NCBI GenBank assembly: GCA_963702845.1
Contig: OY969763.1
Location: 3,648,001 to 3,712,000 of the forward strand
Direction of reading: 5' to 3'
Length of the DNA stretch: 64,000 nt
From: an uncultured Verrucomicrobiae bacterium
GTDB taxonomy: Bacteria; Verrucomicrobiota; Verrucomicrobiia; Limisphaerales; Palsa-1400
A program made the translations under genes and the position numbers. Below the pieces are notes generated by a model that was not told the origin of the DNA, searched no databases, and worked only from the letters and a program-made list of their open reading frames with translations. Of this stretch, positions 16,926-48,048 are shown one piece after another (within the stretch, counting starts at the first letter, position 1; each line of letters opens with the position of its first letter).

Positions 16926-17216
16926 ATGCGAGCAAAGCTGCAAACGTGCATTTTGGTTTTGGTGCTTGGCGGCCTGTGCCTTGGCATATTCAGTTTCGTT
17001 GGCGATCGTCTGCAGCCTCACTGGGTGCTCCAGCTTGGCGGTGCTGATTATGGGCTGTGGGTTATAAAATCGAACGTATTTTTGCTTTTCCGCAGTGCGC
17101 AGTTCGAGATTTCACGTTTCATAGATACGACAGCTCTTTCCATGCTCGCGCTTGGCTTAATGGTAGGCATGTGGGCTCGGCACAGAGGACGAGGGCGATA
17201 TGGCGCGTCTAACTAA
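16926..17216 (+). CDS. Gene-cassette ORF 1, small membrane protein
   Basis: 96 aa with two hydrophobic segments; its last codons overlap the attC R'' box GTCTAAC. Confidence 0.7.
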   Translation: MRAKLQTCILVLVLGGLCLGIFSFVGDRLQPHWVLQLGGADYGLWVIKSNVFLLFRSAQFEISRFIDTTALSMLALGLMVGMWARHRGRGRYGASN

Positions 17217-17330
17217 CCGCTCCAGCCAACACCCGCCGCTCTTGGCATTTCCATTCCGGCGGATATTCTGTTGTCACTGGCTGCGGCCACGTCCCGCTCC
17301 GGCGGCTGCGGCTGAGCTGAAATGTGAGGC
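17207..17330 (+). mobile_element. Integron attC site 1 (124 bp)
   Basis: R'' GTCTAAC; L'' GCTCCAGCC vs L' GGCTGAGC with one extrahelical base; inner CCGCCG/CGGCGG arms; R' GTGAGGC (non-canonical GTG). Confidence 0.8.
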
Positions 17331-17339
17331 ATATACAAC

Positions 17340-17657
17340 ATGAGTGACGTTCGGCCATTAAACCGTGCCGTGTTCGTGCCCGATTGGGTGTTCATCGTGT
17401 TATTTGTGACCACCCTCATTGGTTCTATCGTCACTCAGACCGTTTGGTTCCTTGTTGGCCTTGTCGTTGCAATTCTCGTACAAGGTTTTTACGTTTGTCT
17501 GATTGCCCGTTGTCCCAATTGCGGCGCTCGTGGCTTTTTATTGCGCGGTGGCGAAACAACGGGATACGATCGCCCATATCGCCTGCATTTGGAGTGCCGA
17601 CGTTGTCGCACGCTTTTTGACACAGGCCGGATTCGGAAGAACGAGTACTCTAATTAG
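17340..17657 (+). CDS. Gene-cassette ORF 2, membrane protein with C-terminal zinc ribbon
   Basis: ATG 10 nt after attC1; two TM segments, CPNC...CRRC; followed by R'' GCCTAAC, which is 6/7 complementary to the upstream GTGAGGC. Confidence 0.75.
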   Translation: MSDVRPLNRAVFVPDWVFIVLFVTTLIGSIVTQTVWFLVGLVVAILVQGFYVCLIARCPNCGARGFLLRGGETTGYDRPYRLHLECRRCRTLFDTGRIRKNEYSN

Positions 17658-17899
17658 CTCATGATGAAATCGGTGCCTAACGATGGCGCTTCAGCGCCTA
17701 TGAGGTTTGTCAATACGTAGTGTGCGTCGATGATAGTTTTTTTGGGGTTGATCGCGCGGAGCGCAGTGGAACGAAGCGCAGTCGCGCGCGGCAGGCGGTT
17801 GGACATTGGTTCGATCCGCACCTGTTGTTCTTCTCGAGTCTCCGCTTATCTGTTCCTCTTCAAAGTTCCTTTCTTATTTCTCTCAAAGCAGGTTGCGTG

Positions 17900-18110
17900 A
17901 AGTTTGCTGCATCGGTGTCGCCGCGTTTTGTGTGTCGGGAGTTTGTCCCGCACCAGCTCCTATCCGGACAGTTGAGATAAGACTCAACGCCCACTGTGTC
18001 TTACTTGCCTGACTGCGGCGACCGGGGAGTCCGCCCCTTCTAACGGACGGATGAACGCAAGGTTCACCAGCTGAAGCTACGGACTGGACTCGCCCGATCG
18101 CAAATTGTTT
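17900..18110 (-). ncRNA. Candidate bridge/seek RNA of the IS (boundaries approximate)
   Basis: Target-matching segments at 18068-18077 and 18009-18018, donor-matching segment at 17957-17963, separated by hairpins (GTCCG..CGGAC, TGAAC..GTTCA, GTTGAG..CTCAAC). Confidence 0.7.
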
Positions 18111-18158
18111 CACGCTCTTAACTCTGGAGGTTCTACTCACGAAAAAATTAAATGTGGT

Positions 18159-19310
18159 TCACACGCCGACCCAGCCGAGGTCTGCCATGGTGCAACGGCC
18201 GGTTCGCCAGCGCCAGAGGTCCACGGCCAGTTGCCGGGCAAGGGCAATGACAGTTTTCTTCTTCATGGCCGTGCCGGCGGCAAGTTTGGTTTTCATTTTA
18301 AGTGCGGCCTTCCACCCCGGTTGCCACATCAGAAAACGCCAGACCGCTTCCACCAGGATCGCTCTGACTCGTCCGTTGCCCATGCGATCGATGCTGCCGA
18401 CGCGCCGTTTGCCTCCTGAACTGTGTTCGCCCGGGCAACATCCGGTGTAGCTGCCAATCTGTTTGCGATTGTGGAAGCGCTGCCAGTCGCACACTTCGCC
18501 TTCCAGTGTCACAAGAGTGATCTCGCCAAGGCCCTTGGGCCGTGGTTGTTCTTTGACCCGCGCAATCAGTTCCTCTTCCAGTTCCTGCCGTTGTGTCTCC
18601 ATGGCGACGAGGACCTCGCGGAGCTTTTCGAGAACACTGAGCAGCCACGGATCGAGGGTGGAAAGTTTTTTCCAGTTGCGCGCTCCCCACCAGCGATGGG
18701 GCAGTTTGACGTGGCTGTATTCGGCGGCTTGGCCGTGACCGCGATTGGCGAGCATGCGAATGGCTTTGTTGAGGAACTGTCTTCGTCGCGTGCCTTCGCG
18801 CTGGCGCTGCTCTTTGTCCGAAGGAATGCGGATGGGTGCAAGTTCGTTGATGTTGCCATCAACCCAGCGAGAGAGGCGCAGGCAAAGAGCGCGCGCGTCC
18901 AGCTTGTCGGTCTTGCGCTGGCCGTTGAGGGCAATCGGCGTGATCAAAAAACTTTGCGCACCGGCGGCGACCAGTTCGCGATGGAGCACGAAGCCGAACC
19001 CACAGCTTTCCTGCACGCAGAAAACTTGCAGGCCTTCGCTGGTCCACTTCTGAACCTGGGCGATGAGTTGCTCACGGCTGAATTTGCGTGGCGCTTGGGG
19101 TGAAGCGTGATCACGTTGGGCTACCGCCATGATGAACTCCAGATGCACGTCCAGGCCAAGCTTGAGAGCCGGTTTGCCGGCAAGCAGCACAGGACGTGGC
19201 AAAGGCTGGCGCGGCGGCACGTTTGCCAGCTTGCCCGCGGCAGGCACGCTGGTTAGGGTTGGGACTGTCATGTGGGGTTTGAGTAAATATGTTTTCATTT
19301 TCAAAAACAT
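18159..19310 (-). CDS. IS110-family DEDD transposase/recombinase
   Basis: GLDVH, QESCG, KTDKLDA (D-E-D-D); C-terminal RFHNRKQIGSYTGCCPGEHSSGG...GNGRVRAILVEA with the catalytic Ser. Confidence 0.95.
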   Translation of the reverse strand: MFLKMKTYLLKPHMTVPTLTSVPAAGKLANVPPRQPLPRPVLLAGKPALKLGLDVHLEFIMAVAQRDHASPQAPRKFSREQLIAQVQKWTSEGLQVFCVQESCGFGFVLHRELVAAGAQSFLITPIALNGQRKTDKLDARALCLRLSRWVDGNINELAPIRIPSDKEQRQREGTRRRQFLNKAIRMLANRGHGQAAEYSHVKLPHRWWGARNWKKLSTLDPWLLSVLEKLREVLVAMETQRQELEEELIARVKEQPRPKGLGEITLVTLEGEVCDWQRFHNRKQIGSYTGCCPGEHSSGGKRRVGSIDRMGNGRVRAILVEAVWRFLMWQPGWKAALKMKTKLAAGTAMKKKTVIALARQLAVDLWRWRTGRCTMADLGWVGV

Positions 19311-19418
19311 CGTGACCCCGTGTGGGGCTGCGACTCAACCCTTCATGACATCTGACCGCGGGTTGACGCTGCGTTTACAATCCTTTGGTCAGCGGCCCGG
19401 CGGTCGCTGAGCTGAACG

Positions 19419-19535
19419 TTAAAGCCCCCTCAACCTCCCCTGAATAATCACGCGCGGCTTCGTTGCGACCAGATACCGCAACGCATTCGCCGTATCGTCT
19501 CCGCCGACCCCATCGTCGTCGGCATCGACCCGTTC
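19419..19535 (-). pseudogene. Short remnant resembling the C-terminus of a phage terminase large subunit
   Basis: Minus-strand translation ERVDADDDGVGGDDTANALRYLVATKPRVIIQGRLRGL*; resembles the DDxxDALRY nuclease motif (here D>N). Recognition from memory only. Confidence 0.5.
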
Positions 19536-47316: not shown

Positions 47317-47940
47317 CTAACCCGAGGAAATCCGGTAGGCCACGCTGACGCTCACTACCACGGAAATGATGCTCATGAGCGGAAATTCTCCATACATCAG
47401 ATACAACGTGCCGACGACGGAAATAAGAGCGATGGCGCCCGTAATGAAACCCAATGTCGATTCCGTACCGCGCGCCAACAGCTTCGCGAGATATCCAGTC
47501 ATGGCACCAATCCCAACACCAAGTAATGGGAATCGAAAACCTACCAGGGCAAAGAATCCATACATGGCACCACTGCCGATAGCCGCACCAATCAACGCTC
47601 CTGCAATCCCGCGTCCGAGACTAAACTCAGTGCTGCTGCTGCTTGTCGGCGGAGCCTGTTTGATTGCCGACGCTACAGGGTCCGTGATCAGCGCCGCGGT
47701 CGCAACTGGCGGAGCCGCCGCCGGGGCTGGCGCTGCAACGGGTGCCATCCGCAATCTGGTGACTGGCGCTGACGGTGGAGCTTGCGCTGCCAAAGTTTGT
47801 GAAAGGATCTGGTTTGCGACGGGTGTGCCATCGATGCCACAAACCGGACAGGCAATGGCGGTTGCCATCTGGCCGTTGACTGGCTCCACGTCGAACTCGT
47901 ATTTCTGACCACAACCACACTGTATTTTTACGGGTATCAT
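47317..47940 (-). CDS. Hypothetical zinc-ribbon membrane protein
   Basis: CGCG...CPVC N-terminus, P/A linker, Gly-rich TMs. Confidence 0.75.
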   Translation of the reverse strand: MIPVKIQCGCGQKYEFDVEPVNGQMATAIACPVCGIDGTPVANQILSQTLAAQAPPSAPVTRLRMAPVAAPAPAAAPPVATAALITDPVASAIKQAPPTSSSSTEFSLGRGIAGALIGAAIGSGAMYGFFALVGFRFPLLGVGIGAMTGYLAKLLARGTESTLGFITGAIALISVVGTLYLMYGEFPLMSIISVVVSVSVAYRISSG

Positions 47941-47947
47941 GGTAAAG

Positions 47948-48048
47948 CGGTGACAAGAGAATACAGAAACGATTGAAAATGCCAAGAGTCCCGATGCATC
48001 GGGATTGGCTGGAGCGCTCTGGTTACGGCCGAGTTCGCATGGTTAGGC
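47948..48048 (-). mobile_element. Degenerate left half of an attC site related to attC1
   Basis: Minus strand GTAAC-CAGAGC-GCTCCAGCCAA-[16-bp palindrome]-CTCTTGGCATTTTCAATC...TATTCTCTTGTCAC aligns with attC1 GCTCCAGCCAA...CTCTTGGCATTTCCATTC...TATTCTGTTGTCAC. Confidence 0.65.

Follow-up and report, generated by a model that had tools for sequence, protein, structure and literature searches.

An IS1111-type element of Verrucomicrobiota that probably homes to integron attC sites with an RNA from its own 3' non-coding region

A group of IS1111-type insertion sequences (ISs) that target integron attC sites (ISKpn4, ISPst6, ISPa25, and ISPa21) is reportedly found in Proteobacteria, and is said to have been described by Tetu and Holmes in 2008 and by Post and Hall in 2009. 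Here we analyze a 64,000-nucleotide stretch of DNA from an uncultured Verrucomicrobiae bacterium (contig OY969763.1 of assembly GCA_963702845.1, positions 3,648,001 to 3,712,000), which we call the window. The window contains a complete IS of the IS110 family, IS1111 type, that interrupts an attC. Very probably, this is an active element that homes to attC by means of an RNA from its own 3' non-coding region.

Targeting by such an RNA, the seekRNA, has been demonstrated for the attC-targeting elements ISKpn4 and ISPst6 (Siddiquee et al. 2024, PMC11187229). As described in that text, IS1111 elements extend 7 bp and 3 bp beyond their repeats and do not duplicate the target. Their non-coding region lies downstream of the gene, and in the seekRNA, the match to the top strand of the target is 5' of the match to the bottom strand. 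A short RNA contains both target matches, a longer form is co-transcribed with the transposase from a promoter at the junction of the ends, and the RNA is required for both excision and insertion (PMC11187229). In ISEc11, this promoter (P_junc) has its -35 element in the right end and its -10 element in the left end, so it is a promoter only when the ends are joined (Prosseda 2006, as related in PMC11187229). ISPa21 and ISPst6 are described as inserting close to the 5' end of attC in antisense orientation relative to the cassettes, and their transposases as forming a monophyletic clade (PMC3001079).

The transposase gene of the window element (18159-19310, minus strand) encodes a protein of 383 amino acids, P0001, although the start could also be M5, at 19298. 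By its sequence, P0001 is a member of the IS110 family, as it scores above the curated cut-offs of two family models: 59.4 bits against PF02371 (Transposase_20; cut-off 21.3, E = 4.6e-16) and 171.7 bits against NF033542 ("IS110 family RNA-guided transposase"; cut-off 140). Against PF01548, it reaches 18.2 bits, which is under the cut-off of 29. D54, E101, D135, and D138 do not vary among 15 homologs, and the conservation of S298 is 90% or higher. By the motifs, these five are the putative catalytic residues (DEDD in the N-terminal domain and Ser in the C-terminal domain). (The host genome has three more IS110-family open reading frames (ORFs), at 2835224-2836123, 97420-98298, and 1599923-1600801, which are 31% identical to P0001. 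Two of the three are within about 1-2 kb of attC clusters.)

A protein search with P0001 gave 2782 proteins with an E-value of 0.001 or less, and identity is 72% or higher throughout the best 120. Among 201 sampled genomes of the order, 11 have a member of the family at E <= 1e-80. We compiled 54 related loci, 13 from genome contigs and 41 from metagenomes. Nearly all of the 13 are labelled as Verrucomicrobiota or as Pedosphaera metagenome-assembled genomes, which agrees with the host assignment that a first-pass annotation of the window had made from the letters alone. The 41 metagenome loci mostly encode proteins 56-84% identical to P0001; a few are distant or partial.

The host genome, a single contig of 6.03 Mb, contains the element six times, and five of the six copies lie inside attC-like sites. 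These five have just four differing positions among them, and the sixth copy (c6) has diverged by about 5%. When all six are aligned with their flanks, the conserved DNA on the plus strand spans CCTATGAGG to CATGACATCT. The five copies in attC sites share their place and orientation: R'' of the GCCTAAC type, GCTYCAGCG, the IS, and then GACGG. In five of the six copies, R'' starts 22 nt away from where the element has inserted.

The identical ends of the six copies and the uninterrupted attC sites, which carry neither CT nor CCT at the insertion point, place the complete element at 17697-19353 on the minus strand (1657 bp). Read in the direction of the transposase, it begins with AGATGTC, a 7-nt extension, followed by an inverted repeat, and it ends with an inverted repeat and AGG, a 3-nt extension. 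The left end (19332-19353) is made up of AGATGTC (19353-19347) and the subterminal inverted repeat ATGAAGGGTTGAGTC, and the subterminal repeat of the right end is at 17700-17714. The repeat is imperfect: in our alignment, ATGA(A/T)GGGTTG from the left end and the reverse complement of the right end, ATGAGG(G/T)TTG, have 10 matches and one 1-nt gap. With the boundaries set from the uninterrupted sites, the extensions are 7 bp on the left and 3 bp on the right, without target duplication. Most of the element's non-coding DNA is downstream of the transposase gene (462 nt, versus 43-55 nt upstream).

The first-pass annotation had correctly recognized an intact IS110/IS1111-type element within an attC, but it placed the boundaries at 17697-19351 and proposed that target and donor share a CT core (AG on the other strand) that is retained after insertion, as in IS621. 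(On this geometry, the element is 17697-19351, or 17700-19351 plus one CT.) We think this is highly improbable. It is true that CT is present at both junctions on the plus strand, that some right flanks of relatives begin with AG (L041 and L062), and that both of the left-side guides in the RNA, described below, end in AG. But the sequence of the empty site is GCTTCAGCG^GACCGC, in which CT is absent. The uninterrupted form without CT, GCTGCAGCGAACCC (GCAGCG^AACCC or GCAGCG^GACGG), is present in 59 of the 201 genomes, at about 154 places and often in arrays; a reversed-pattern control for this search gave 11 matches by our count. In comparison, the version with CCT, GCTGCAGCGCCTAACCC, is at one place in one of the 201 genomes. 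(This sole uninterrupted attC with CCT at the insertion point, L085:1490-1640 from genome G058, counts in favor of a shared core; it may represent natural variation or be a footprint.) The host genome has no uninterrupted site with CT and none with CCT, and it has an uninterrupted GCTGCAGCG^GACGG at 4836687. Furthermore, once CCT is removed, the pairing of the attC arms is broken by just two single-base bulges, by our reading. We had also considered a boundary model with a 2-bp CT/AG duplication (1654 bp). A fuzzy search of the host genome for the empty sites of that model found nothing convincing, and we dropped it because the searches for uninterrupted sites contradicted it.

The relatives have the same kind of ends. 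In the direction of the transposase, all 50 of the left junctions that we found read ...AG|ATG(Y)CATGATGGGTTGA, with AG preceding ATG or AAG, and 40 of the 41 right junctions that we found read ...TTGACAACCCTCATAG|G, ending in ...AGG. That the left junctions have AG in 50 of 50 cases, not the target's CG, is also evidence against a heteroduplex core. Flanks typically read ...GCCGGGTT and CGCTGCAGCGCATGGTTAGGC, and the complement of R'' is present in at least 31 of the 38 distinct right flanks. One relative, L035:1471-2200, has the right end CATACT in place of CATAGG. Both loop strands of its RNA carry GCGUCAG and both of its flanks contain GGCGTCA; this copy has been either retargeted or rearranged.

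The site that the element interrupts is of a true integron attC type. Its 5' part (17675-17696, plus strand) consists of R'' (GCCTAAC, 17675-17681), a spacer, GCTTCAGC (17688-17695), and G17696; its 3' part (19354-19424, plus strand) reads GACCGCGGG ... GCTGAGCTGAAC GTTAAAG, with R' at 19418-19424. An attC-like palindrome is present around the element, as the first-pass annotation had it. Rebuilt sites have the inverse cores GCCTAAC ... GTTAGGC, arms that pair imperfectly, and a centre whose length varies. The ORF of the adjacent cassette (17340-17657) is on the plus strand and the transposase gene is on the minus strand, so the insertion is antisense to the cassette.

Relatives of the host link these sites to integrons. 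In one genome (G132), an integron integrase gene (intI, 456.9 bits) is followed, starting within 500 bp, by five such attC sites, all in one orientation and at a spacing of 260-460 bp. In another (G051), intI (426.6 bits) heads an array in which one attC holds a complete 1751-bp member of the family, whose protein is 72% identical. The palindromes could instead be imagined as repetitive extragenic palindromic (REP)-like repeats, and the element as a REP-targeting IS like ISPa11 or ISPpu9. The host genome itself would fit this: it has no integron integrase above the cut-off (the best match has 86 bits, versus 265), and its roughly 27 attC-like sites are scattered or loosely clustered, that is, they form clusters or singletons without an integrase. 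But the same repeats occur in arrays, with a spacing of 260-460 bp, directly beside IntI in G132 and G051, they have R''/R' inverse cores and a variable centre, and short ORFs end just ahead of the sites. Also, 68 of the 201 genomes of the order have an integron integrase above the curated cut-off. We therefore consider it barely conceivable that these are REP-like repeats.

Several other attC-related features are worth recording. Upstream of the interrupted site is an uninterrupted attC-like site, attC1 (17208-17331, plus strand), which reads GTCTAAC ... GCTCCAGCC^AACACC ... GTGAGGC. Its R' is degenerate, and it lies between two short ORFs (16926-17216 and 17340-17657), neither of which has a Pfam match. 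A second attC-like 5' half in the window is at about 47930-48040 on the minus strand (genome position 3696015) and reads GCCGTAACCAGAGC GCTCCAGCC AATCC. Elsewhere in the genome, at 276594 on the plus strand, an attC 5' half is followed by TCTATGAGGGTT, which resembles the right end of a different member of the family. There is no transposase gene of the family at that location, and it is probably a solo end remnant. Finally, a repeat of 90-250 bp is scattered through the attC clusters (at 2187599-2190598 and in more than 30 other places, for example at 175-181, 1722-1731, and 4285-4311 kb). In the right flanks of copies c4 and c5, this repeat stands beside the IS in place of the remainder of the attC. 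Read on the opposite strand, it resembles the C-terminal end of a phosphoketolase-like protein (...HKHYIREHGDDMPEIRDWKW).

We then turned to the RNA. Downstream of the transposase gene, where the first-pass annotation had correctly placed a target-reading RNA, the element encodes a structured non-coding RNA of about 190 nt (17911-18104, minus strand), which would be the equivalent of a long seekRNA or a bridge RNA. Domain 1 (18104-18019, 86 nt) is a long stem around an internal loop, with an apical hairpin, and domain 2 is at 18018-17917. There is just one difference between c6 and the other copies across 18135-17943, as compared to differences of about 5% over the rest of the element. From an alignment of 32 distinct homologous RNAs (A1), we derived a consensus fold, which was cleaned to 36 pairs. 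In this structure, 98.3% of cells are paired, and 15 of the 36 pairs show compensatory (two-sided) changes. None of 500 shuffles reached the observed pairing, and slid partners were 39-52% paired. Because G-U alternatives are frequent, and these pairs are possible solely on the transposase-sense strand, the functional strand of the RNA is the transposase sense. In the centroid fold of the window copy, both strands of the domain-1 loop are unpaired. No Rfam family reached its gathering threshold anywhere in the window, and with permissive E-values, the non-coding region gave just a chance match to ssnA.

Three segments of the RNA alignment (A1 columns 4-8, 84-92, and 205-212, or about 18101-18097, 18024-18017, and 17924-17917 in the window) stand out in that GUCGCCGC could pair with either GCGAC on its 5' side or GCGGCGAC on its 3' side. 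In L046 and L054, all three segments change together, as would be expected if the pairing alternates or if the two domains meet here. Further downstream, in the distal part of the non-coding region, a G+C-rich block (17752-17797, minus strand; CGCGCGCGAC...GCGCUCCGCGCG) is conserved in the downstream regions of relatives even though its surroundings are not.

The two unpaired loop strands of domain 1 contain GCUUCAGC and CCGUU, which are, as judged from their sequences, two target guides that match opposite strands and abut the insertion point. The 5' guide, GCUUCAGC (18070-18077, minus strand), lies on the 5' strand of the internal loop. Its possible pairing partner is the complementary strand of 17688-17695, and its end is 1 nt away from the crossover. 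On the other strand of the loop, the 3' guide, (U)CCGUU with AG after it (18040-18047, minus strand), matches the flank at 19354-19358. More precisely, CCGUU (18046-18042) is the sense of this flank (GACCG or GACGG; CGGTC or CCGTC on the minus strand), with a U-G wobble in the case of CCGTC, and the AG that follows, to 18040, equals the first two bases of the left end of the IS.

The first-pass annotation had proposed four guide segments, and the four strings are indeed in the RNA where it placed them, but only some of them appear to be guides: its outline was right and about half of its details were wrong. Its first segment is a target guide and lies in an unpaired loop strand, as it had expected of all the guides, and it covaries with the flank in L026/L054, in L042, and in the element's own copies. 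However, the 10/10 match of GCUUCAGCUG to the target, CT core, and G is wrong because that reading dropped bases; the match is 8 contiguous bases (GCTTCAGC, 17688-17695), then G17696, and then the IS. The second segment, CCGCAGUCAG (18009-18018, minus strand), does have the claimed 9/10 match in the window copy. Yet 32 of 32 RNAs keep CGCCGC[A/C]GUCA whatever their flank. The annotation itself had named such an outcome as one that would speak against it, and by this criterion the segment is no target guide. This segment is partly within the closing stem of domain 2, the rest being a conserved single-stranded stretch. The third segment (AUCUC) is not supported as a guide either, as it lies within a hairpin of non-conserved sequence. 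The actual second target guide, CCGUU-AG at 18046-18040, had been missed. Nor is the layout the IS621-like "X-CU ... X-AG": no guide ends in CU, and both left-side guides end in AG.

What connects the guides to the targets is covariation. The matches of the two loop strands covary with the flanks over about 40 related loci. In L026 and L054, the guides ACUGGAGC and ACU occur with the flanks GCTCCAGT and ACT, respectively; L042 has GCUGGAGC with GCTCCGGC; and L035 has GCGUCAG with GCGTCAG. By our count, of the 13 loci that have a GGG guide and a left flank, 10 have a GGG flank. We compared distinct guide/target pairs to 10000 shuffles. For the left flank (3' guide), 135 of 161 positions pair, versus a shuffled mean of 122.8, and 1 of the 10000 shuffles reached this value. 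For the right flank (5' guide), 91 of 120 positions pair, versus 84.1, and 19 of the 10000 shuffles reached it. Owing to the relatedness of the sequences and the small number of independent events, these tests overstate the significance. (Extending the 3' guide into the left end, so that A[A/U]G would match ATG/AAG, was ruled out, as there was no covariation.)

It might be argued that the transposase itself reads the sequence or the fold of attC, and that the RNA-like matches are a by-product, such as a captured fragment of attC or a binding site that mimics it at the level of DNA. The target is conserved and structured, so a protein could read it. Some guide positions tolerate mismatches, and the guides resemble each other's partners, as the arm of attC is nearly palindromic (GCTGCAGC). 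However, in L026/L054, L035, and L042, a changed flank comes with changed loop strands while the protein is still 69-79% identical; the stems that enclose the guides show RNA covariation, in which G-U pairs are confined to one strand; and the RNA is described as essential in attC-targeting relatives of the same type (PMC11187229). Recognition by the protein alone is therefore highly improbable, and we continue with targeting by the RNA.

The host genome offers another comparison, because it has 27 attC 5' halves that the guides could select from. Five of them are occupied, and these are the sole ones that pair 8/8 with the first guide (with at most one wobble) and at least 4/5 with the second. 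Another 21 are empty, and none of these satisfies both guides. The remaining one carries the remnant of another element. By our reading, attC1 pairs 8/8 with the first guide (with one wobble) but 3/5 with the second. The first-pass annotation had attributed the emptiness of attC1 to guide mismatch. This is plausible and fits the occupancy table, but it is unproven, as c6 lies at a site with a similarly poor match to the second guide.

If the two strands of the domain-1 loop are target guides, then another part of the RNA might match the donor. The best candidate for a donor guide, from its sequence, is AUAGGAG (17957-17963, minus strand), which consists of the last 5 nt of the right end (ATAGG) and the first 2 nt of the left end (AG). 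It equals the deduced circle junction at 7 of 7 positions, it is invariant in 32 of 32 RNAs, and it parallels the layout of the target guide in having five flank bases followed by AG. Here the first-pass annotation was accurate: its fourth segment is the 7/7 reverse complement of the donor junction that it had given, GACAT-CT-CCTAT. Covariation cannot test this candidate, because the RNA segment and the ends of the IS are both invariant.

Joining the ends would also be predicted to form a promoter. In 37 of 37 loci, a distance of 11 nt separates the right end from TTGACA (17713-17708 in the window copy, within the right-end repeat) or TTGACT, and CATGAA (19347-19342) or CATGAT is in the left end. 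With the ends joined, the spacer from TTGACA to CATGAA/CATGAT would be 11 + 6 = 17 nt, again in 37 of 37 loci. The -10 half is weak (CATGAA in the window copy and CATGAT in most relatives). The geometry with 7-nt and 3-nt extensions predicts the circle junction CTCATAGG-AGATGTC, whereas a shared core predicts CTCAT-AG-ATGTC, with a 14-nt spacer. So the 17-nt spacer requires that AGG and AG are both in the IS, which is another argument against a shared core.

Putting these observations together, we infer the following cycle, in which the RNA would bind the transposase and pair with DNA during recombination. In the RNA, two single-stranded stretches would face each other in the internal loop. 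The 5' stretch, GCUUCAGC, would pair with one DNA strand over 8 nt, leaving 1 nt between this pairing and the crossover. CCGUU, in the 3' stretch, would pair with 5-7 nt of the other strand, directly across the crossover, and is followed by AG, the first bases of the IS. The second domain, with AUAGG-AG, probably holds the circular donor. The DEDD/Ser recombinase would then put the circle between ...GCTYCAGCG and GACGG..., always antisense to the cassettes and without duplication. The joined-end promoter, with its 17-nt spacer, would drive the transposase gene and the RNA from the circle only. As for the exchange itself, the donor carries AG where the targets carry CG or NG; the left junctions keep AG and the right junctions keep the target's bases. 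This suggests that both strands are exchanged at one position, without a shared core.

Several observations weigh against RNA-guided homing or against parts of this cycle. First, copy c6 (genome 441906-443569) is in unrelated, non-attC sequence that has only the GCTTCAGC side in common with the other sites, so it matches just one guide well. The c6 site is a perfect match to the 8-nt guide of the other copies, but c6's own guide has changed (the equivalent of 18074 T>G), and so c6's own RNA has one mismatch to its site. Second, the covariation comes from few independent events (L026/L054, L035, L042, the lineage in the host genome, and GGG versus CGG), many CGG guides are at GGG flanks, with a mismatch at the outermost position, and no covariation with the left end is seen for the base triplet that follows UUAG. 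Third, for the donor, a mutual-information scan that compared the columns of the RNA alignment with 30 nt at either end of the IS gave no signal, and a candidate match to the right donor (GACA with TGTC) fails in the elements with ATGCC ends. Fourth, searches of solved structures with P0001 and with a 15-sequence profile gave no match to IS621, whose solved chains have no detectable sequence match to P0001. Fifth, among public sequencing runs, four had small shares of matching sequence, and their contigs are from relatives that are 85-95% alike. One soil metatranscriptome contig spans 17984-18251, but it too is a relative's, so it is not evidence of expression of the window element.

How does this element compare to those already described? 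Like the ISKpn4/ISPst6 group, it is of IS1111 type, lies close to the 5' end of attC, and runs antisense to the cassettes (as described in PMC3001079). Going by the published text descriptions (PMC11187229), it also resembles them in having a downstream RNA with one segment per target strand and the top-strand match first, and the published short seekRNA would correspond to the first 86 nt of the window RNA. Both have subterminal inverted repeats and no target duplication. Unlike that group, the window element is in Verrucomicrobiota, and it targets the attC type of Verrucomicrobiota. P0001 is also very distant from the proteins in a plasmid collection: the plasmid-borne proteins found by tblastn are at most 34% identical over part of its length, and for IS1111-family elements on plasmids, the identity is about 24% over 54% of P0001. 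(We inspected four candidate plasmid loci from tblastn searches with P0001 or with a plasmid IS110-family protein, and none was in an integron.) As in ISEc11, the joined ends would form a promoter, here one predicted from its -35/-10 arrangement.

A further comparison is with IS621, of the IS110 group. According to the published descriptions (Durrant et al. 2024, PMC11208160; Hiraizumi et al. 2024, PMC11208158), it has a DEDD/Ser recombinase and a structured RNA, guides on the two strands of an internal loop read opposite strands flanking the crossover, and a second domain matches the donor ends. The window element appears similar in its structured RNA and in the layout of its target guides, and it has a putative DEDD/Ser recombinase and a second domain with a candidate donor match. 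Unlike in IS621, the window RNA is 3' of the gene rather than 5' and the order of the guides is reversed (PMC11208160, PMC11208158). Also in contrast to IS621 as described there, the 8-nt guide does not take in a core and leaves 1 nt before the crossover, target and donor lack a shared CT core and no core is duplicated, and the element has long subterminal inverted repeats. One could go further and propose that homing to attC was acquired independently of the proteobacterial IS1111-attC clade, by reprogramming of the guides to the local attC, together with a core-free exchange unlike that of IS621. We put this forward tentatively, as we think it is somewhat unlikely.

What is new here is the Verrucomicrobiota lineage and a well-documented example, as the principle has already been published for related elements (2008-2024). 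Still, the finding takes RNA-guided homing to attC beyond clinical Proteobacteria, into Verrucomicrobiota of soil and freshwater. Integrons are common there, with IntI in 68 of 201 genomes of the order. The relatives provide a natural covariation series for an IS1111-type RNA, with dozens of loci and several guide/target variants, and the published structural work is on the IS110 type only. The clean pairs of empty and filled sites show insertion without a shared core, which bears on strand exchange in IS1111 elements. In the host genome, which lacks an integrase, the element marks those attC variants that its guides can read. And because the insertions split attC sites, they probably freeze cassettes in place.

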